Positions 1,660 to 12,877 are shown, counted from the stretch's first letter. The stretch is 64,000 bases of DNA from Candidatus Aminicenantes bacterium UBA6228 (GCA_002441005.1 DJWO01000009.1:402226-466225); one strand, 5' to 3'. Made by a program: numbers and translations. Notes: generated from the sequence alone by a model not told the origin.

Positions 1660-2439
1660 ATGATCATGGTTCTTGATATCGGCAATACGACCATTGCTCT
1701 TGGTGTCTTCCAGGCCAGGAAGCTACTGGCTAACTGGAAAATCAAAAGCGACCGTGAAAAGACTGCCGATGAATACGGCCTGATTCTTTCCAGTTTGCTT
1801 GGCCATGAAAAGCTAACCTGCCAGAAAATCAAAGGGGCGATTGTCTCTTCAGTTGTTCCACCCCTTACCCCGGTCATTCAGCAGGCCATTGAGAGATTTT
1901 TTAAGGTCAAGCCATTGCTGGTTGGCCCCGGTCTTAAGACTGGCCTGCCAATTCTTTATGAAAACCCGGCCGAAGTTGGTTCTGACCGGATTGTGGCGGC
2001 CTGTGCCGCTTTTGAAAAATACGGCGGTCCCTGTCTGGTAGTAGATTTCGGGACTGCTACTACATTTGATGCCATCTCGGCTGCCGGCGAATATCTGGGT
2101 GGATCAATCGCTCCCGGAATTCAGATTTCAGCTGAAGCTCTTTATCTTCGGACAGCCCGCCTGCCCCGGATCGAAATTAAAAAGCCCAGAACAGCTATTG
2201 GCCGAAATACTGTGGCCAGCATGCAATCAGGCCTTTATTTTGGTTATATAGGGCTGGTCAATCAAATTGTTGCCGAGATATCGGCTGAGCTTCAATCCAG
2301 GCCGACGGTCATCGCCACTGGCGGGCAGGCTGATCTGATCGCACTGGAGATTAAGGCCATCAATCAGGTCGAGCCCAACCTGGTCCTCGAAGGGCTGAGG
2401 CTTCTCTATGAAAAGAACCGCCGCCGGGAGAAAAAATGA
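1660..2439 (+). CDS. coaX: Type III pantothenate kinase
   Basis: N-terminal MVLDIGNTTIALGVF and later GTATTFD/ATGG motifs of the acetate/sugar kinase fold, characteristic of CoaX. Confidence 0.85.
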   Translation: MIMVLDIGNTTIALGVFQARKLLANWKIKSDREKTADEYGLILSSLLGHEKLTCQKIKGAIVSSVVPPLTPVIQQAIERFFKVKPLLVGPGLKTGLPILYENPAEVGSDRIVAACAAFEKYGGPCLVVDFGTATTFDAISAAGEYLGGSIAPGIQISAEALYLRTARLPRIEIKKPRTAIGRNTVASMQSGLYFGYIGLVNQIVAEISAELQSRPTVIATGGQADLIALEIKAINQVEPNLVLEGLRLLYEKNRRREKK

Positions 2440-3074
2440 AGACGGATGAAGCCAGTCGCCAGGACTATTATCAGCAAATAGTCCGCCATTTTCTAAAGCA
2501 CCAGACGGCCATGTTCTTCCTGCCGCCCCGCGATCTGGCTTTGATTTCGGATTGGGAAAAGCTGGGTATTCCCCTGGAGCCAATTCTTGAGGGGATTGAT
2601 CAAACTTTCTCGAGACAGCTCAAAAGAAGAAAAAGGCGGAATATTTATTCACTAAGTCAGTGTGAAAAAGAAGTCTTGAAGGCTTATGCCAGCTATCAGG
2701 ACCGCCTGGTGGGCCAGGCTGCACCCAGAATTGAACCAGGTGAAAAGAGAAATAAAGCCAGAATTGAGATCGAGACTTTCCTGGGGCACCTTCCGGTTGA
2801 ATTCGAGGACTTGAGGGAAATATTCAAGCAGGCCCTGGACCTGCTCGCAAGCTCTGAGCCAGATGAAAACAAACTGGAAGAACTGGATGAGGAAATTGAC
2901 CGGCATCTTTTTGAGCTGGCGCCGGAGGCAGAGAAACAGGCCAGCTTAAAGGAGGTTAAACGGGATTTTCCAGACAAGCCAGCCTCCCTCCTGACTGAAA
3001 TTCAGCAAACCAGGATGATTAAGGCCAGAAGACAGGCCAACCAGATTCCTTATGTCTCTCTTTTTTATTATTGA
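2436..3074 (+). CDS. Hypothetical highly charged protein (212 aa) that is translationally coupled to coaX. No recognisable domain.
   Basis: ORF overlaps the coaX stop by 4 nt (ATGA). Protein is Glu/Lys/Arg rich with no motif I can assign. Confidence 0.5.
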   Translation: MKTDEASRQDYYQQIVRHFLKHQTAMFFLPPRDLALISDWEKLGIPLEPILEGIDQTFSRQLKRRKRRNIYSLSQCEKEVLKAYASYQDRLVGQAAPRIEPGEKRNKARIEIETFLGHLPVEFEDLREIFKQALDLLASSEPDENKLEELDEEIDRHLFELAPEAEKQASLKEVKRDFPDKPASLLTEIQQTRMIKARRQANQIPYVSLFYY

Positions 3075-5223: not shown

Positions 5224-6327
5224 ATGAGCTCAATGGTGAATGTTTTTTATGCCCTGCCCGGTAAGGAGTGGCCTGAAATATCCCGGACAGAAAATAAGAC
5301 CGGCCAGATCACAAACAGCCAGGGTCAGTTTCAGGCAAAAATAGAGACGACCTGTCTGGCTTCACCCGGGTTCAACCTTCCTTACCTGAGAGTAGAAGCC
5401 AGCCTGCCGTTTGACCTCAGATGGGGCGACAGTTTTCACCTTAAACTTCCAGGCTCTGAGCTGACCATCTGGCTCAGAGTTATTTACCCCCAGGCAAGCC
5501 AGATGAAAAAGATAAAAAAAGAGGAAAACCTAATCCAGCGGCTGGATAGATTTGCTGGCGGGGAGAAATCCATGTTGCTGGCCCTGACCGAAGAGGCCGG
5601 GATCAAAGGTCTACGTCAACCAGAGATGGAAGCTTTTTGCCGGTTGGTTTCCTCCCGGCTCAGCCAGTTAGCGGCGGCTCTCGAAAAAGAGGGCCAGCTC
5701 TTTATCCTGGAATTTTCACCTCTTTTTCTCCTGAGCAGGAACAGCTTTGATTTTCTGGCCGGGAAAATGATGAGCTTTATTCAAGATTATCATCAGCGCC
5801 GGCCAGGGGAAACCGGAGCCCCGATAAAAAATCTCAAAGAGAAATTCAGGGTTCCAAAGCCAGTTCTCTGGCTGGCTCTTAACCGGCTGTTAAAGAATAG
5901 GCAAATAAAAATCAGCGGTGAGCAGGTTTCTCTCCGGGGTTTTGAAACCAGCTTGTCGGCAGAAGAAAATGAGATTATGGCTGCCATTGAAAAGATGCTT
6001 CTTGACCAGAAGTTTTCTGCTTTCTCCCTCGACGAACTGGCCAGGACATTTAAGGTCCATCCCAGCCGTCTGGAGACCATGGTTGAACTTCTTCTTCAGA
6101 AAAAGAAAATAGTGGAGAGCCGCGAAGGATTTATCCTGCCAGTCAGCTGGCTGGAAGAAATAAAAAACCAGCTGGCTGAAAAAAAGAAGCGTGGTCAGAG
6201 AGAATTAATGGTTAGCGAGTTTAAAGAAATGACCGGGCTATCAAGAAAATATGCTATTCCTCTTCTCGAATTTCTGGATGAGTTAGGGCTGACCCGCCGT
6301 CTTGGCTCAAAGAGATTGATAGTCTAA
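5224..6327 (+). CDS. Stand-alone SelB C-terminal-like protein (beta-barrel domain III-like plus tandem winged-helix domains), lacking any GTPase domain
   Basis: The C-terminal ~250 aa resemble the SelB winged-helix mRNA-binding domains (e.g. LSRKYAIPLLEFLDELGLTRRLG, ELARTFKVHPSRLETMVELL). No G1-G4 GTPase motifs. ATG at 5224, 29 nt after the rnr stop. Confidence 0.55.
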   Translation: MSSMVNVFYALPGKEWPEISRTENKTGQITNSQGQFQAKIETTCLASPGFNLPYLRVEASLPFDLRWGDSFHLKLPGSELTIWLRVIYPQASQMKKIKKEENLIQRLDRFAGGEKSMLLALTEEAGIKGLRQPEMEAFCRLVSSRLSQLAAALEKEGQLFILEFSPLFLLSRNSFDFLAGKMMSFIQDYHQRRPGETGAPIKNLKEKFRVPKPVLWLALNRLLKNRQIKISGEQVSLRGFETSLSAEENEIMAAIEKMLLDQKFSAFSLDELARTFKVHPSRLETMVELLLQKKKIVESREGFILPVSWLEEIKNQLAEKKKRGQRELMVSEFKEMTGLSRKYAIPLLEFLDELGLTRRLGSKRLIV

Positions 6328-6347: not shown

Positions 6348-8465
6348 CTATTTTTTCTCTTCAGGTTCTTCTTCTTTCTGTTCCGGCTGTTTTTTGGTCA
6401 GGGCTGATTTCAACATTTCGGCGAAGAAGCCAAATTTAGCCTCTTGCTTGGCTGCTTCGAGTTCAACCTGGATGGTTTTGTCCTCGGCTTCTGCTCCGTC
6501 TTCTGCTTCTTCTTTCTGAGCCTTAACTGCCTCCAGTGCTTCTATTTCAGATTCTTCCTCGACAATTCTTTCCTCAATCAGCCGACGGTCGCTTTTTTTT
6601 GGCTTGAACTTTTTCTCTTCAACTGGCCCTTTCTTCTTTTTAGCCAGCTTCTCTTCTTTCTCCTTTTCTTTGCCCTTTTTAACCGGTTCGAGAGTAACTT
6701 TGATTTCAGGCTGTTGAGCAGGGGTGATAACCGCTTCTGGCGCCCGGGTTCCTTCCTCTACCTCTTCAGCCCCGGGCTGCTCCGATTTTTCGGTCACAGC
6801 AGATTCCTGGCTGACTGCGGGCCTGGCTTCAGCTCCACTGCCAGCCAGCTGCTCGGCCAATGATTCCAGGAATGAGGCAGCTGCTTTTTCTTCCTCAACA
6901 GGAACTTCCTTCGGTTCAAGCGACTCCTGATAGATATAAATACCTTCTTTTTTCTCTGAAGCTACAAATTCAGGAGCATTATTCAGTACATATTCAACAT
7001 CTTCAGCGGTCGTAGCCTGGAGCAGGTCAACCAGATGGTAGGCCCGGAGAAAATGCAAAGAGCGGTTATTACCGGTCAGCTCCGGTGTCTTGAAGACTTT
7101 TACCAGCAACTGCCGCAGATCTAATCCTTGGCTTTCTTCTTGCCTGCCCAGCAAGTAAGCAACTGCTTCTCTGTCCAGATTCAGGGTCTTATTGGCCAGG
7201 GCCAGGGTAAAGACTTCTTCCTTGGTCAAACTAAAGCGGCCAGTGGCCGGATCATATTCCAGCTGGTAGGTGGCTGTCTTTTTCTTGGATTTCTTGATCC
7301 AGAAAGTAAAGGCATCCTGGGCCTTCCGGTTAATAGTCAGACTTGTCCCCTGAGGAATATTATTGGCTCGGAAATACTCGCCCAGTCCCAGGAAATAATT
7401 CCCCTCGGGATAATAATAAACGGTATAGGCTTTGCCATCTTCGTCATCTACAAGCTGATATTCTCGTGAGGTAAATTCGCGGGACAGACTTCTGGGAAGC
7501 CGGATTGCACCCGATAAAACTTCTCGCCAAGTCAGATAGACTTTAAACGGAAAAGAATCAATCCGGGCGTACTGCAGGCCCTCACCCTGCCCGAGATCAG
7601 GGACTGAAGCCAAGGGACTGGAAATCGGCAGGCCTTCAGGCAGCCTGTTTAGCACACTCTTCAGGTGCCATTTGCCCCAGTTAGCAGTCGACAGGCAGAT
7701 AAAATCACGGCGGTATTTCTTCTCGAGCCAGGCATTTAAACTCAAACAATAAAGCTCAAAGAGATCACTGGATGGCTCCAGGCCAAAATACTTCTTCACT
7801 ATTTCTTCAGTCGAGAGAGAAAACTGGGCCACCAATAGCTCGTCAGAAATTTCTTTGATTTTTTCTTCAGGAATCTCAATCCTTTTGGAACTTAATTGCC
7901 AGAAATCATTCCAGCCAAAGAAAGCAGGTGAGCTGCTCAGGGCTTTTCTCAAGTTTCTCTCGAGGGCTTTAATATCCTTCTCCGTCATTGGCAGTTCAGT
8001 CTGCCGCGGGTCGCGTTCCTCCCCAAGGATCTCAGGCTCTTTCCCCTGCCCGTCAGGATTGGAGGGCAACAAGACTTCGGTTTTAGTCTTTTTCATGTAA
8101 TCAAGATAGCGCCGGAAAGACCCCCCGCCATCATAATCGACTTCCAGCATTTCATAAGGGAAATTAGGCAGCCTGGTCTTGTTTACAACTTTAAGAACCA
8201 CTCCACCCTGAAAATGCTCGGTAGCTTTGCTACCGACCTGGAGATTTTCATCATATTCTTTATAGATAAAATCTCCAATTTCATAACGGGCATTGGGATC
8301 ATAAATTTTAACGGCCTGATGCCGTTCGCTGGCCGTCTTGGCAAAAGCCAGCTTCCCGGTCAGTTCAGCCGCCGGCCAGGGCCGGTTGGTCCTGATTAGT
8401 TCTTGCTCGACTACAGCCATATCTTCAGGGGTAATGGCCGTAATTTTTAAATTTTCTTTATCCAT
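6348..8465 (-). CDS. Hypothetical 705-aa protein; a ~540-aa N-terminal region with no recognisable domain, followed by a Glu/Lys-rich low-complexity C-terminal tail; last gene of the COG2403-arcC-argF operon
   Basis: Long uninterrupted ORF. Its start lies 3 nt after the argF stop on the same strand. C-terminal ~170 aa are EK-rich (KKGKEKEKEEKLAKKKKG...). No motif match that I can recognise. Confidence 0.6.
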   Translation of the reverse strand: MDKENLKITAITPEDMAVVEQELIRTNRPWPAAELTGKLAFAKTASERHQAVKIYDPNARYEIGDFIYKEYDENLQVGSKATEHFQGGVVLKVVNKTRLPNFPYEMLEVDYDGGGSFRRYLDYMKKTKTEVLLPSNPDGQGKEPEILGEERDPRQTELPMTEKDIKALERNLRKALSSSPAFFGWNDFWQLSSKRIEIPEEKIKEISDELLVAQFSLSTEEIVKKYFGLEPSSDLFELYCLSLNAWLEKKYRRDFICLSTANWGKWHLKSVLNRLPEGLPISSPLASVPDLGQGEGLQYARIDSFPFKVYLTWREVLSGAIRLPRSLSREFTSREYQLVDDEDGKAYTVYYYPEGNYFLGLGEYFRANNIPQGTSLTINRKAQDAFTFWIKKSKKKTATYQLEYDPATGRFSLTKEEVFTLALANKTLNLDREAVAYLLGRQEESQGLDLRQLLVKVFKTPELTGNNRSLHFLRAYHLVDLLQATTAEDVEYVLNNAPEFVASEKKEGIYIYQESLEPKEVPVEEEKAAASFLESLAEQLAGSGAEARPAVSQESAVTEKSEQPGAEEVEEGTRAPEAVITPAQQPEIKVTLEPVKKGKEKEKEEKLAKKKKGPVEEKKFKPKKSDRRLIEERIVEEESEIEALEAVKAQKEEAEDGAEAEDKTIQVELEAAKQEAKFGFFAEMLKSALTKKQPEQKEEEPEEKK

Positions 8466-8468
8466 TGG

Positions 8469-9389
8469 TTATTTTTTCCCCATTAGAATCATCATTATGA
8501 CTTTTTGGACATGTAATCTATTTTCAGCCTGATCATAGACTATAGAATTGGGCGAATCAATAATCTCATCTGTTGCTTCTTCTCCCCGGTGGGCCGGCAG
8601 GCAGTGCATGAAATAAGTTCCAGGCTTAGCTCTGGAAAATAATTCCCGGTTAACCTGATAAGGAGCAAAAATCTTCTTTCTGGTTTCCTTTTCTGTTTCC
8701 TGGCCCATCGAGGCCCAGACATCAGTATAGATGGCATCTGCCTCTTTAACCGCTTCGGCCGGGTCATTAGTAATGGTCAGTTCAAAATCAGTGCCGTGCC
8801 CATCTTCCCTGGCCCAGTCTATAATCTCGGCTTTGGGCTCATAGCCAGGCGGAGTCGCTACCGCCATTTTCATCCCGGCTTTAGCTGCAGCCAGCATCAG
8901 GCTGTGAGCCACATTGTTGCCATCACCGACATAAGCCAGCTTCAGGCCAGCCAGGCTACCCTTCTTTTCCAGCAAAGTGAAAAAGTCAGCCATGGCCTGG
9001 CAGGGATGGAGGAGATCAGTCAGGGCATTGATGACTGGCAGCCTGGTGCTTTCTGCCAGTTCGAGGATGATATTATGTCCAAAGGTCCTGATCATAATCC
9101 CATCAACCCAGCGCTCGAGGTTTTTACCTATATCCCGGACGCTTTCGCGAGAACCCATTTGAATATCAGATGGGGCTAGATAAATAGCTTCACCGCCCAA
9201 TTGCAGCATGCCGACTTCAAAGGTCATTCTCGTCCGGAGAGAAGGTTTCTGAAAAATCATAGCCAGAATTTTATCTTTCAGCACCGAGCGGTATTTCCCT
9301 GGATTTTTCTTCATCTTTTCGGTCATATCCAGAATTTCATTGAATTCATAACGGCTCAAATCATGGATGGTAATAAAATCCTTTCTCAT
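8469..9389 (-). CDS. argF: Ornithine carbamoyltransferase
   Basis: Carbamoyl-phosphate-binding STRTR (SLRTRMTFE), HPCQ, DxxxSMG ornithine loop (DVWASMGQE) and the OTC-specific HCLP motif (HCLPAHRGEE). Confidence 0.85.
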   Translation of the reverse strand: MRKDFITIHDLSRYEFNEILDMTEKMKKNPGKYRSVLKDKILAMIFQKPSLRTRMTFEVGMLQLGGEAIYLAPSDIQMGSRESVRDIGKNLERWVDGIMIRTFGHNIILELAESTRLPVINALTDLLHPCQAMADFFTLLEKKGSLAGLKLAYVGDGNNVAHSLMLAAAKAGMKMAVATPPGYEPKAEIIDWAREDGHGTDFELTITNDPAEAVKEADAIYTDVWASMGQETEKETRKKIFAPYQVNRELFSRAKPGTYFMHCLPAHRGEEATDEIIDSPNSIVYDQAENRLHVQKVIMMILMGKK

Positions 9390-10372
9390 CTTTGTCCTCC
9401 GATGGCTAAGTTTGAGCTGGCTGAGGCAGCTGAGACAATTCTCGTTCCGGACCGGTTAATCAGAGCAGCTTTCAGATGACTGGCTGAGGTAATAAGAACT
9501 TCTTTCCCCCCGGCTTCAATATACTCAATAGCCGCTCTAATTTTTGGACCCATGGAACCGGCGGGGAACTCTCCCTCTTCCAGATATTTCCTGGCTTCTT
9601 CTACTGTAATGACAGGCAGAGGTGTCTGGTCAGGCCGCCCAAAATGATAATAGACACGGGGAATGCCAGTCAGAATAATGAACAATTCAGCTCCAACTTC
9701 TCTGGCTAAAAGGCTTGAAGCGTAGTCTTTATCAATGACGGCCTCTACCCCTTCATACAGGCCGCGGCTATTGATGATAACCGGGATGCCGCCGCCTCCG
9801 GCTGCAATCACTACCCGGCCAGACATGACCAGATCTCTGACCATCCATTTGGGGACAATATCAATCGGCAGAGGAGAAGGGACAACCCGCCTGAAACCCC
9901 GCCCCGCATCTTCTACCATTGTCCATTTCTTTTGCCGGGATAGCTGTTGAGCCCTGAATTTAGGGTAAAAAGGGCCAACCGGCTTGGTCGGCTTCCCGAA
10001 AGCCGGATCGTCTTTATCTACTACCACCTGGGTTATAATGGTGGCTACATCCTTATCTATCGATTGACGCCGAAGCTCATTAATGATGGCCTTTTCCAGC
10101 ATGAAACCCATGCTGCCTTCAGTCATGGCGTCACAGACATCAAGGCTGAAAGGCGGAATTTTATTGGCCGCTTCTTCCATTTGAATCAGCAAATTTCCCA
10201 CCTGGGGGCCATTCCCATGAACAACAATAAGCTCATAGCCCTTTTTGATGATCTGGACCATGAGTTCAGCTGCCTTCTGGGCCTGGCGCATTTGCTCTGC
10301 CTGTAAACCTTTCTGGTTTTCAGGCAGAATGGCATTTCCGCCAAAAGCAATCAGTGCAACTTTCGCCTTCAT
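9386..10372 (-). CDS. arcC: Carbamate kinase
   Basis: Amino-acid-kinase family N-terminus (KVALIAFGGNAI...VVHGNGPQVG) and length ~328 aa typical of carbamate kinase. Overlaps the argF start by 4 nt. Confidence 0.75.
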   Translation of the reverse strand: MKAKVALIAFGGNAILPENQKGLQAEQMRQAQKAAELMVQIIKKGYELIVVHGNGPQVGNLLIQMEEAANKIPPFSLDVCDAMTEGSMGFMLEKAIINELRRQSIDKDVATIITQVVVDKDDPAFGKPTKPVGPFYPKFRAQQLSRQKKWTMVEDAGRGFRRVVPSPLPIDIVPKWMVRDLVMSGRVVIAAGGGGIPVIINSRGLYEGVEAVIDKDYASSLLAREVGAELFIILTGIPRVYYHFGRPDQTPLPVITVEEARKYLEEGEFPAGSMGPKIRAAIEYIEAGGKEVLITSASHLKAALINRSGTRIVSAASASSNLAIGGQR

Positions 10373-10450
10373 CTTCTGCCGCCTTAACCTTGCCTGTTTT
10401 TATCTTCTGTGATTTTTCCCGGTAGCGTCCATTCCTGCCGTCACTCAGGT

Positions 10451-11755
10451 TCAAAATTCCTTTAAAACAGATTTAATATTGGGCTGGCCAATTTCCTCAA
10501 GTTCATAGCGCACCCGGAGCATGGGTTTGTTAACTTTAATTACCCGGTTGAGATCAATAGGCGTAGCGCTTATCACCAGATCACAATCTATTTTGTTGAT
10601 GGTGGCAGCCAGTTCTCTCGTCTGTTTTTCTCCGTAACCCATAGCTGGCAGCACCTTATCCAGATGGTTATATTTTTCAAAGGTCTTTTTAATGCTGCCC
10701 ACAGCATATGGCCTGGGGTCAATGATCAAGGCTGCTTTGTATTTCTGAGCAGCCACAATGCCCGCTCCATAGCGCATACCACCATGAGTCAGAGTCGGCC
10801 CATCCTCAATGACCAGAACCTTTTTACCGGTAATTTGAGAGCCGTCATCAACAAAAATTGGTGAATTGGCTTTAATGACTTTAGCCCTGGGGTTAATCTT
10901 CTTGATGTTATCCATCACCAGTTGAATTTTTTCCGGCTCAGCTGTATCCATTTTATTAACGACATAGACGTCAGCCCGGCGGAAATTGGTTTCACCGGGA
11001 TGATAACTTAGCTCATGACCAGCCCGGTGAGGGTCAACCACGACTATTTCCAGATCTGATTTATAGAAAGAAAAATCATTATTACCGCCGTCCCAGATGA
11101 TGACGTCGGCTTCCTTTTCCGCCTGTTTCAGAATAGCGCCATAATCAACACCGGCATAAACGATGATACCATTATCAATATGGGGTTCATATTCTTCTCT
11201 CTCTTCAATTGTGCATTCATACCGGTCAAGGTCTTCATAAGTAGCAAATCTCTGAACCTTCTGCTTTTCCAGGTCGCCATAGGGCATAGGATGCCTGATG
11301 ACCACCACCCGGCGCCCTTTAGCCTTCAGGGTCAGAGCAACTTTTCTGGTGGTCTGGCTTTTGCCCGAACCGGTTCTGATCGCGCAGACAGAAACTACCG
11401 GTTTACGGCTCTTAATCATCGTATCATCCGGACCGAGCAGAACAAAGCTGGCCCCCGCCCCCATCACCTCCGAGGCCTTGTGCATCACATAGTCATGAGG
11501 AACATCGCTATAAGCGAAATGGACCTCATCGACCTTATATTTCTGGATGAGATCAGTCAATTCAGATTCAGCATAGATTGGAATTCCTTTGGCATAAAGC
11601 TTTCCGGCCAGAGCCGCCGGATATTTTCTGCCTTCAATATCCGGGATCTGGGTAGCAGTAAAAGCTACTACCTGGTAATCTGGGTTATCACGAAAATAGA
11701 CATTGAAATTGTGAAAATCACGTCCGGCCGCTCCCATAATAATGACTTTTCTCAT
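10451..11755 (-). CDS. COG2403-type predicted P-loop protein (cyclic 2,3-diphosphoglycerate synthetase-like family), first gene of the operon with arcC/argF
   Basis: MobB-like P-loop CAIRTGSGKSQT. I prefer the start at ATG 11755 (MRKVIIMGAAGRDFHNF), which has the SD AAGGAG 6 nt upstream; the track's TTG at 11818 is an upstream extension. Family assignment is from memory, not a search. Confidence 0.5.
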   Translation of the reverse strand: MRKVIIMGAAGRDFHNFNVYFRDNPDYQVVAFTATQIPDIEGRKYPAALAGKLYAKGIPIYAESELTDLIQKYKVDEVHFAYSDVPHDYVMHKASEVMGAGASFVLLGPDDTMIKSRKPVVSVCAIRTGSGKSQTTRKVALTLKAKGRRVVVIRHPMPYGDLEKQKVQRFATYEDLDRYECTIEEREEYEPHIDNGIIVYAGVDYGAILKQAEKEADVIIWDGGNNDFSFYKSDLEIVVVDPHRAGHELSYHPGETNFRRADVYVVNKMDTAEPEKIQLVMDNIKKINPRAKVIKANSPIFVDDGSQITGKKVLVIEDGPTLTHGGMRYGAGIVAAQKYKAALIIDPRPYAVGSIKKTFEKYNHLDKVLPAMGYGEKQTRELAATINKIDCDLVISATPIDLNRVIKVNKPMLRVRYELEEIGQPNIKSVLKEF

Positions 11756-11791
11756 TTCCAAGCTCCTTATCATAATTTTTTTATAATTAGC

Positions 11792-11818
11792 TTGATTGCT
11801 ATCCTGACCGGCAATCAA
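11792..11818. promoter_or_regulatory. Perfect 8-bp inverted repeat TTGATTGC-N11-GCAATCAA, 37-63 bp upstream of the COG2403-arcC-argF operon start; candidate operator
   Basis: Read directly from sequence. Lies in the promoter/5' leader of the minus-strand operon. Confidence 0.3.
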
Positions 11819-12125
11819 GAACTATAAGTATAGCAAAAAACAGGGGTTAAAGTCTAATTGAATCCCGGCAGCAGAATCTGGCCTTTAATCAATTTCAGCC
11901 AGCGCGATGAGACAGTGCCCGGCTGGTTTTCTAACTTTTCTTTGTGCTCGCCAGGTTATTCTTTTTTTGGTCCTGAAATTTCTTCAAAAGCCGCCTTTGA
12001 TGGTCAGCCTCTGCCTTTCTCACCCTTTGCCAGCCTGGTTTTTGACGATTACCAATGGTCTTACTCACCGATTCACCTCCTGCCCATCAACTGGCAGCCG
12101 ATAAAAATTTGCATTTAGGCCGCAA

Positions 12126-12802: not shown

Positions 12803-12877
12803 AGGCGCGTAGCTCAGTGGGAGAGCGCTTCCTTGACGCGGAAGAGGCCGTGGGTTCAATCCCCTCCGCGCCTACCA
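12803..12877 (+). tRNA. tRNA-Val (anticodon GAC) with encoded 3' CCA
   Basis: Manual fold: acceptor AGGCGCG pairs with CGCGCCT. D-arm GCTC/GAGC. Anticodon stem CTTCC/GGAAG with loop TTGACGC (anticodon GAC). T-arm GTGGG-TTCAATC-CCCTC with one U-U mismatch. Discriminator A plus CCA. Confidence 0.75.

Follow-up and report, generated by a model that had tools for sequence, protein, structure and literature searches.

In the 64,000-nt window, that is, the whole stretch of DNA analysed, which comes from a Candidatus Saccharicenans bacterium (Aminicenantes), four tightly linked genes occupy positions 6348-11818 on the minus strand. The open reading frames and spacings given for them in the initial annotation were confirmed: a gap of 78 nt separates arcE from arcC, arcC overlaps the ornithine carbamoyltransferase (OTC) gene by 4 nt, and 3 nt lie between the latter and the gene of a 705-aa protein, here called X. 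The genes, the elements upstream of them and the regions of X are, in the order of transcription:

11827..11857, minus strand: putative operon promoter (TAGACT, 18-nt spacer, extended -10 element TGcTATACT), from a consensus scan
11791..11819, minus strand: inverted repeat in the 5' leader (CTTGATTGC, 11 nt, GCAATCAAG), seen in the sequence
10451..11755, minus strand: arcE, probable arginine synthetase, a P-loop (SIMIBI-type) protein of 434 aa
9386..10372, minus strand: arcC, carbamate kinase, 328 aa, from profile scores
8469..9389, minus strand: arcB/argF, ornithine carbamoyltransferase, 306 aa, overlapping arcC by 4 nt
6348..8465, minus strand: open reading frame of X, 705 aa, with its start codon 3 nt past the OTC stop codon
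7266..7553, minus strand: B3-like DNA-binding pseudobarrel of X (residues ~305-400), with the conserved basic motif FWIKKSKKK at its end
6915..7178, minus strand: C-terminal winged-helix region of X (residues ~430-517, a presumptive assignment), with LHFLRAYH and TTxEDVE motifs
6390..6914, minus strand: disordered tail of X (residues 518-692), from pLDDT, conservation and charge

The two middle genes encode a carbamate kinase (CK) and a true OTC, as had been proposed, and both proteins pass equivalog cut-offs. CK scores 369.9 bits with TIGR00746 (cut-off 358.25) and also matches Pfam AA_kinase, while OTC reaches 404 bits with TIGR00658 (cut-off 281) and 430 bits, likewise above the cut-off, with NF001986. 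Both Pfam OTCase domains match, and the translated gene contains the HPxQ (HPCQ), SMG and HCLP motifs. With the paralogue models the OTC stays under the cut-offs (PTCase 322/500, ATCase 147/237, YgeW 52/500), as it does with the models of the longer type of ~332-334 positions, such as NF003286 and NF009213. Scanning the window ORFs against Pfam, a few ORFs being identified solely via synteny, revealed no arginine deiminase, ArcD or ArgR domain, in agreement with the earlier claim that these genes are missing. An Amidinotransf/ADI-type domain was found neither in the cluster nor in the scanned ORFs, and the cluster has no gene for a membrane protein or transporter. With both ArcA and ArcD missing from it, the cluster is indeed not a canonical arcABCD cluster.

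The mechanical ORF of arcE covers 10451-11818 (455 aa) and reaches a TTG at 11818. Its true start is almost certainly the ATG at 11755 (Met22 of the ORF), which gives 434 aa: an AAGGAG ribosome-binding site lies 7 nt upstream of this ATG, and nearly all close homologues among the best 120 matches of the protein search are 434 aa long. Source databases label the protein 'predicted GTPase' or 'cDPG synthase', and it was initially assigned to COG2403. Judged from its sequence and its neighbours, it is very probably the arginine synthetase ArcE. A P-loop 'putative GTPase' clustered with arcB/arcC and replacing ArcA was characterised as ArcE in 2024 and catalyses Arg + ADP + Pi <-> citrulline + NH3 + ATP (Michimori et al., PNAS 2024; PMC11032458). 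The authors recognise homologues by BLASTP against TK2200 at E <= 1e-10, and use as a criterion a distribution complementary to that of arginine deiminase, with ArcC present and ArcA absent (PMC11032458). Here arcE adjoins arcC and arcB, in the order arcE-arcC-arcB, in the window and in 108 related loci. The list of arcE carriers includes haloarchaea (PMC11032458), and haloarchaeal proteins align with the P-loop protein at 55% identity over 97% of its length; on a haloarchaeal plasmid the arcE homologue stands divergent from arcC. The suggestion that the P-loop gene sits in the place of arcA was well founded, with the predicted ArcE taking over from arginine deiminase.

It is very improbable that this protein is instead a cyclic 2,3-diphosphoglycerate synthetase (cDPGS) or a G3E-type metallochaperone GTPase and that the cluster does not serve an arginine pathway. 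The resemblance to cDPGS (PDB 8ork, 9sxb) amounts to a phmmer match with 9sxb (E 4.8e-5) confined to about 110 residues (residues 230-341) and to 19% identity in the structural alignment, and the gene context differs; full-length similarity to cDPGS was considered and rejected, since only residues 230-341 match. The compound cDPG is a solute of hyperthermophilic methanogens. Matches to CobW, HypB and LpxK among the Pfam and NCBIfam profiles are weak, with the cobW match spanning profile positions 112-179 of 180 only and the hypB and lpxK NCBIfam scores far under their cut-offs, and no G3E P-loop GTPase family (CobW/HypB/UreG) gave a full-length match above curated thresholds. LpxK (PDB 4ehx/4ehy) shares 16% identity with ArcE, acts on another substrate and has no N-terminal Rossmann-like extension. 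What also speaks against both assignments is the gene context: over 100 genomes keep the P-loop gene together with arcC and argF, and in haloarchaea it adjoins arcC. The NCBI name 'cyclic 2,3-diphosphoglycerate synthase' carried by ArcE homologues is probably an over-annotation that is wrong in thousands of records.

The genes arcE, arcC, OTC and X would be transcribed together from a strong, conserved promoter near 11827-11857. Dozens of Aminicenantes loci have -10 and -35 elements of the same sequence at the same place upstream of arcE. The tightness of the gene junctions suggests translational coupling and therefore co-expression of X with the enzymes. In close relatives a hairpin is kept at the position of the inverted repeat, with changed bases; its significance is modest because the z-score of the whole-leader fold is only -2.0. 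Many Aminicenantes share the conserved leader motifs GACAATTGAA and GGAGAAGTTTTT, and single-sequence folds of arcE leaders look terminator-like. The idea that the arcE leader holds a conserved regulatory RNA, either an attenuator or a riboswitch, was considered and rejected on the strength of this z-score, of RNAalifold, which gave no consensus structure for the conserved arcE leaders, and of Rfam, in which the leader has no match. No operator for X was identified.

The three enzymes, whose identities are based on homology, fold and gene context and are very probable in the case of ArcE, would make up the arginine synthetase pathway, which has been known since 2024 (Michimori et al., PNAS 2024; PMC11032458). 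ArcE would convert arginine, ADP and Pi into citrulline, NH3 and ATP, the OTC would phosphorolyse citrulline to ornithine and carbamoyl phosphate, and CK would gain a second ATP from carbamoyl phosphate. The predicted net gain is 2 ATP per arginine, with ArcE in place of the ATP-wasting arginine deiminase. The proposal of an undescribed carbamoyl-phosphate/citrulline system could therefore not be upheld, as the pathway has already been named: what is new about the ArcE-CK-OTC cluster is the lineage, not the biology. No relevant publication on how Aminicenantes or Saccharicenans metabolise arginine emerged from a literature search.

The reference system is that of Thermococcus kodakarensis, with ArcE (TK2200), ArcB and ArcC (Michimori, Yokooji & Atomi, PNAS 2024; Michimori et al., Front Microbiol 2026). 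Both systems have three components, in which a P-loop 'putative GTPase' stands in for ArcA and is clustered with arcB and arcC; both ArcE proteins have fold relations to LpxK and cDPGS, and there is no arcA nearby (here, in the scanned window ORFs). Unlike T. kodakarensis, the present host is a bacterium of the Aminicenantes and not a hyperthermophile, and its three genes are packed into one operon with a fourth gene specific to the lineage. With the canonical arginine deiminase (ADI) pathway (arcABC(D), ArgR/ArcR) the cluster shares OTC and carbamate kinase, the conversion of citrulline to ornithine and ATP, and the overall logic of arginine fermentation. It differs in having no ArcA, with an ATP-forming step predicted in place of hydrolytic deimination, and no ArcD antiporter or ArgR/ArcR among those ORFs of the 64-kb window that were scanned; a yield of 2 ATP is predicted, compared with 1 in the canonical pathway.

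Because all three steps are reversible, we only infer the catabolic direction of flux. The same enzymes could run towards biosynthesis, with CK making carbamoyl phosphate, OTC citrulline and ArcE arginine, which would give an energy-limited anaerobe a cheap 2-ATP route instead of carbamoyl phosphate synthetase (CPS) and ArgG/ArgH; we regard this as somewhat unlikely. ArcE is reversible and supports arginine synthesis from citrulline in vivo, and a biosynthetic role has been proposed for organisms with ArcB and ArcE that lack ArgG/ArgH (PMC11032458). That the OTC belongs to the short, ArgF-like type (best models NF001986 and TIGR00658) also fits biosynthesis, and the operon is possibly the sole, ATP-cheap arginine route of these organisms. 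However, the equilibrium lies toward citrulline and ATP, with a delta G0' of -6.8 kJ/mol, and the authors take clustering with arcC as a signature of catabolism (PMC11032458); in T. kodakarensis, CK was unable to supply carbamoyl phosphate. One deep relative has an omega-aminotransferase gene directly upstream of arcE, which fits the disposal of ornithine and would also fit ArgD.

X is a different matter. As initially reported, the 705-aa protein is unrecognisable by sequence, with no family above threshold in Pfam, NCBIfam, PHROGs or PADLOC, and the structure prediction and profile searches proposed for it yielded no known family, only a model that combines a B3-type pseudobarrel with several winged helices, one of which resembles the N-terminal domain of the RNA polymerase delta subunit. 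The AlphaFold model is confident over residues 1-517 (pLDDT about 90). The tail consists of an acidic linker, a basic Lys-rich stretch, a charged helix (KKSERRVIEE..EESE.EAL) and a C-terminal helix, KFGFFAEMLKSAL, with net charges by segment of -9, +8 and -13; pLDDT falls below 50 at residues 542-621, and helices are modelled at 626-656 and 681-689. The charged helix and the short C-terminal helix are conserved, and the KFGFFAEMLKSAL core is invariant across the family. X has no transmembrane segment (maximum 19-residue Kyte-Doolittle hydropathy 0.56). A role of the last helix as a membrane-targeting amphipathic helix was considered and is unsupported, its hydrophobic moment being merely 0.30.

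In fold searches X matched solely nucleic-acid-binding or protein-binding modules (B3 and winged helix), and its best-scoring domain was the DNA-binding B3 fold. The pseudobarrel superposes on solved B3 domains and resembles those of the plant proteins FUS3/VRN1/RAV1 and of the restriction enzymes EcoRII-N, BfiI-C, NgoAVII and LlaJI.R1. With Pfam B3 (PF02362) X scores 16.6-17.2 bits, under the gathering cut-off of 30.1, and sub-threshold B3 matches occur in 6 of 9 family members, the best E-value being 2.5e-4. Unlike the named B3 proteins, X has a B3 domain under the Pfam cut-off within a 700-aa chromosomal protein, and unlike the restriction enzymes it has no nuclease or catalytic partner domain and does not lie in a mobile or defence context. 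Its winged helix and charged tail are similar to the delta subunit (RpoE) of Firmicutes, which combines a HARE-HTH with an acidic disordered tail; X is, however, four times longer, has extra domains, belongs to another lineage and gives no significant HARE-HTH match at the sequence level in a comparison with a delta sequence. Neither is X similar to a convergent, SelB-like winged-helix neighbour.

Homologues of X (n=844) are all labelled hypothetical and none has a Pfam domain; a profile search found 111 representatives among 1.84 billion proteins, and the named family members all come from Aminicenantes or Acidobacteriota assemblies. Distant X-like proteins show no domain fusions informative on function. 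The expectation that homologues of the 705-aa protein would travel with the other three genes across genomes was borne out: of 117 non-redundant loci, 116 have X immediately behind arc genes, 108 of them as ArcE-CK-OTC-X and the others after subsets. The reduced arrangements are ArcE-CK-X, ArcE-X, CK-OTC-X, OTC-X and X alone; one sister lineage has X linked to nnr-tsaE instead, and relatives without nearby arc genes were seen at L086, L089 and L091 and on the P0395 contig. Flanking genes change repeatedly on both sides, yet the arc-X junction stays within a few nucleotides in the 116 loci. The adjacency of ArcE and X is kept despite unrelated flanks, a G+C content ranging from 29 to 40% and an X identity of about 30%. 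Over 108 loci the median identity is 79% for ArcE, 76% for CK, 73% for OTC, 64% for ThrRS and 53% for RNase R, and X is conserved to the same degree as RNase R.

X is an uncharacterised partner strongly linked to the arc operon, and by any test applied it is neither an enzyme nor a transporter. The models describe it as a soluble multi-domain protein of the Aminicenantes lineage that is predicted to stand outside the chemistry of the pathway. It had been suggested that the 705-aa protein takes the place of ArcA or ArcD, as a new enzyme substituting for ADI or as a transporter. Its conserved linkage to the cluster and the absence of a recognisable family would suit this idea, which is nevertheless very unlikely: a divergent ADI, a transporter and a defence protein were each considered, and no Pfam, NCBIfam, PADLOC or PHROGs match, transmembrane segment or fold of such a kind was found, the fold matches being B3 and winged helix. 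As a scaffold or tether, with winged helices making protein contacts and the conserved C-terminal helix serving as an anchor, X could assemble the enzymes of the pathway or hold them in place, such as at the membrane close to an arginine/ornithine exchanger. The protein-interaction modules cullin WHB, APC2 and ESCRT-II among the winged-helix matches, the invariant KFGFFAEMLKSAL helix core and the presumed co-expression through tight junctions are supportive of such a role; the modest hydrophobic moment of the helix, a cluster with no transporter gene and a top-scoring domain of the DNA-binding B3 type argue against it, and we consider it improbable.

From the modelled domains we tentatively suggest that X may bind nucleic acid as a regulatory or architectural factor that would be co-expressed with the arc operon and could couple it to the arginine or energy state of the cell. 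Winged helices also make protein-protein contacts (cullin, ESCRT-II, APC2), and the folds do not prove nucleic-acid binding. X may instead have no part in arginine metabolism and be a general, abundant Aminicenantes factor, for example nucleoid-associated or associated with RNA polymerase in the manner of delta, whose gene has stayed in its ancestral position after a highly expressed operon, and we regard this as a serious possibility, though short of an even chance. It persists where arc genes are partly or wholly missing, as if these were lost piecemeal around a fixed anchor, and the linkage to nnr-tsaE, the RNase R-like conservation and the length of 700 aa with a delta-like winged helix and an acidic tail all point the same way; a last gene behind a strong promoter also suits an abundant protein better than a dedicated repressor. 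The arc-X linkage may moreover be historical and not functional, because in thousands of other taxa ArcE does without X. On the other hand, the junction is kept in 116 of 117 loci while the flanks vary, and in some lineages the adjacency of ArcE and X outlasts all other shared context. That X represents a new bacterial B3/winged-helix family and a dedicated partner of the arginine synthetase operon is rather doubtful; as such it could respond to arginine or energy and regulate transcription or RNA in place of ArgR/ArcR, or bind directly to ArcE. Overall, an arginine synthetase pathway operon co-transcribed with X, a non-enzymatic partner of the Aminicenantes lineage, is in our view a likely explanation of the locus.

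ArcE has to date been characterised in one hyperthermophilic archaeon only (PMC11032458), and the present locus provides a predicted bacterial ArcE within one operon with carbamate kinase and OTC. ArcE, CK and OTC are more conserved than ThrRS in the more than 100 related loci sampled, which suggests that the 2-ATP arginine route has a central place in how a widespread lineage of uncultured anaerobes manages its energy or nitrogen. [quoted passage not shown] If X is a dedicated partner, the Aminicenantes operon would represent a four-component variant of the arginine synthetase pathway.

The four linked minus-strand genes and their spacings proved exactly as the initial annotation had given them, with four consecutive ORFs set apart by 3 nt, a 4-nt overlap and 78 nt:

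6348-8465, minus strand: X, 705 aa
8469-9389, minus strand: ornithine carbamoyltransferase (OTC; TIGR00658), 306 aa
9386-10372, minus strand: carbamate kinase (CK; TIGR00746), 328 aa
10451-11818, minus strand: P-loop gene (probable arcE), 455 aa as an ORF, 434 aa from the start ATG at 11755
11791-11819, minus strand: 9-bp inverted repeat in the arcE leader

Judged by its sequence, the 306-aa protein is a true OTC, as had been proposed, scoring 404 bits against TIGR00658 (cut-off 281) and below the cut-offs of the putrescine, aspartate and YgeW carbamoyltransferase models, with HPCQ, SMG and HCLP motifs readable in its translation. The 328-aa protein is likewise assigned as the expected CK (arcC) by TIGR00746 (369.9 bits, cut-off 358). 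The 455-aa ORF gave weak CobW, HypB and LpxK P-loop signals only; the real start of this gene is the ATG at 11755, preceded by an AAGGAG site, and the resulting 434 aa is the length of nearly all its relatives among the matches listed. The larger ORFs scanned in the window were all housekeeping, polysaccharide or phosphate-transport genes, and among them we found no arginine deiminase (ADI, ArcA), arginine/ornithine antiporter (ArcD) or ArgR gene, in agreement with the initial annotation. The closest relatives of the P-loop protein and X among the matches listed are from Candidatus Saccharicenans/Aminicenantes MAGs, and a contig of the Ca. Saccharicenans sp. Go_SlDig_bin_15 MAG shows 95-98% protein identity over the entire neighbourhood.

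Michimori, Yokooji and Atomi (PNAS 2024, PMC11032458) sought the replacement of ArcA in archaea that have carbamate kinase without ArcA, and found it in TK2200 (ArcE) of Thermococcus kodakarensis, a protein annotated as hypothetical, whose gene type often adjoins arcB and/or arcC and whose reaction is Arg + ADP + Pi <-> citrulline + ATP + NH3. Homologues of TK2200 had been named 'putative GTPase', and those listed there are from many bacteria, including Acidobacteria, and from haloarchaea. The window P-loop protein matches every testable descriptor of TK2200 and is similarly called 'predicted GTPase' by JGI; haloarchaeal plasmid-borne homologues are 55% identical to it over 97% of its length, one being divergent from the adjacent arcC. 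We regard it as very probably ArcE, through a transitive rather than a direct tie to the characterised TK2200. Its NCBI name, 'cyclic 2,3-diphosphoglycerate synthase', is most likely an over-annotation, the match to the corresponding synthetase (cDPGS) extending over 110 residues only (phmmer, E 4.8e-5). The same label is carried by many bacterial and haloarchaeal ArcE homologues among the matches listed, and is probably a systematic misannotation, since the window protein is only 19% identical to the solved cDPGS and the genes adjoin arcC/argF. On the 565-kb Salinirubellus plasmid NZ_CP147842 (locus L085), the arcE homologue divergent from arcC has as its surroundings four genes for universal stress proteins and one for a ligase of the RimK/LysX family.

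ArcE, OTC and CK very probably constitute the published arginine synthetase pathway, which gives two ATP per arginine versus one for the ADI pathway and whose three steps are all reversible (PMC11032458). Its authors raised a biosynthetic role for organisms without ArgG/ArgH (PMC11032458), and a 2026 follow-up found the pathway to be also a source of carbamoyl phosphate in Thermococcus. In the window, we lean towards catabolism or a dual role, in which arginine would yield, net, ornithine + CO2 + 2 NH3 + 2 ATP. Median identity across 108 related loci is 79% for ArcE, 76% for CK and 73% for OTC, as against 64% for ThrRS and 53% for RNase R, which is not the usual pattern for an operon of peripheral catabolism. 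The -35 and extended -10 elements 5' of arcE show conservation throughout the class, and this, like the conservation of the enzymes, fits a highly expressed, central function. That the three enzymes and a co-expressed fourth product, X, form a single operon, with a putative promoter at ~11827-11857, is strongly supported. The enzyme part is a new bacterial, operon-organised example of the pathway published in 2024 rather than a novel type of system, and the suggestion of an undescribed carbamoyl-phosphate/citrulline system is superseded by that literature (PMC11032458).

The window's arcE leader has the 9-bp inverted repeat, and other Aminicenantes have leader motifs GACAATTGAA and GGAGAAGTTTTT in common; a structured leader RNA received no firm support from RNAalifold, Rfam or shuffling (z = -2.0). 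Most non-Saccharicenans Aminicenantes share a conserved leader in the ~75 nt 5' of arcE (e.g. L028, L076, L053), seen in loci L001-L084 and others and absent from the window's own clade, in which a pyrimidine run, GACAATTGAA and, ~25 nt on, GGAGAAG with a T-run precede the real Shine-Dalgarno; single-sequence folds are terminator- or attenuator-like, and neither an RNAalifold consensus structure nor an Rfam match was found.

X reached no family above threshold in Pfam or NCBIfam, so that the 705-aa protein is as unrecognisable to profile searches as it first seemed. Of the 5.8 billion proteins in one collection, 844 are homologues of X, every one labelled 'hypothetical' and without a Pfam domain, and a profile of the conserved N-terminal 520 residues retrieved only 111 of 1.84 billion cluster representatives (58 at E <= 1e-30); named members are all from assemblies labelled Aminicenantes or Acidobacteriota, some with evident MAG mislabels. 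In the family alignment, a very conserved body (residues 1-520) is followed by a variable acidic linker, a Lys-rich stretch, a conserved charged helix (KKSERRVIEE...EESE.EAL) and a conserved C-terminal short helix, KFGFFAEMLKSAL. AlphaFold, from a 100-sequence alignment, gave pLDDT ~90 for residues 1-517 and disorder at 542-621; Foldseek, otherwise agreeing, found no full-length structural match. Pfam B3 recurred below threshold in 6/9 members, and searches for transmembrane segments and for defence-system or phage families gave none. On these results, X is a soluble multi-domain protein whose predicted modules are of kinds that mostly bind nucleic acids, in some cases proteins. The reading of X as a cryptic ADI or as a transporter was rejected, there being no family match, no transmembrane segment and binding-type modules. 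In one 928-aa metagenomic protein (P0411), the N-terminal 270 residues of an X-like protein are linked with Tubulin_2-like and HSP70-like segments; this may be a genuine fusion, or a chimera produced by assembly or gene calling.

Loci were pooled from 80 species-level genomes, 80 metagenome contigs (fetched using an alignment of the most divergent X members) and contigs of distant representatives, and 117 non-redundant loci with at least 3.5 kb 5' of X were counted.

Gene order at X in the 117 loci
ArcE-CK-OTC-X: 108/117
ArcE-CK-X: 3/117
ArcE-X: 3/117
CK-OTC-X: 1/117
OTC-X: 1/117
X alone: 1/117

An arc neighbour is therefore present in 116/117 loci; three additional distant relatives of X were without one (~24% identity, or contigs with less upstream DNA). 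With X outside known families and the cluster recurring across genomes, this part of the initial annotation stands. In one deep-branching lineage (L090, L091, L092), nnr (YjeF_N/Carb_kinase) and tsaE come next after X, overlapping it or a few bases away, with or without ArcE upstream, a second recurrent linkage of X.

The 367-aa protein convergent with X (5224-6327, plus strand), which adjoins X in 88/108 related loci, has only SelB-wing_2 and SelB-wing_3, the C-terminal winged helices of SelB, without the GTPase domain; no similarity between it and X was found. The arcE promoter and the metallophosphoesterase gene are separated by a 45-codon ORF (11931-12068, minus strand) with a GTG start behind a GGAGG. 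Its product, a very basic peptide, has the motif NRQKPGWQRVRK, kept in sequence and position across sampled Aminicenantes loci (e.g. MAHPVNRRQKPAWQKVRR in distant ones); in L003/L004 the annotation has a 44-aa gene at this place, and the ORF has the look of a genuine small-protein gene. A tRNA-Val(GAC) gene (12803-12877, plus strand) lies just 5' of thrS, in the interval that separates thrS from the divergent metallophosphoesterase gene. The 212-aa protein at 2436-3074 (plus strand), which relatives likewise have between coaX and rnr, has no Pfam match, and its N-terminal ~100 residues match a PHROGs DnaD-like helicase-loader family (E 1.5e-9).

The arc-X linkage exceeds ordinary synteny: ThrRS, metallophosphoesterase, the SelB-like protein and RNase R are variably present as flanks, nnr-tsaE replaces the usual genes 3' of X in some lineages, the distant loci span 29% to 55% G+C, and ArcE is still directly 5' of X where X falls to ~30% identity. 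Such linkage could reflect functional coupling of X with the arc genes, or an ancestral ArcE-CK-OTC-X block decaying round a fixed anchor. X is not a catalytic requirement of the pathway, because X persists where arc genes are missing, and thousands of other taxa have a working ArcE and no X. We propose tentatively that X binds nucleic acid and has a regulatory or architectural role tied to the arc operon; no operator was found. The main rival, at least as probable, would make X a factor of general use in Aminicenantes, delta-like or nucleoid-like, whose gene has simply stayed in its ancestral place. A role of X in scaffolding or tethering the pathway enzymes seems improbable.

X represents an uncharacterised family, and with this conserved fourth gene the Aminicenantes locus counts as a variant form of the arginine synthetase pathway. 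The ArcE operon itself will not surprise specialists; the near-universal ArcE-X linkage and the predicted bacterial chromosomal B3/winged-helix architecture of X merit follow-up.
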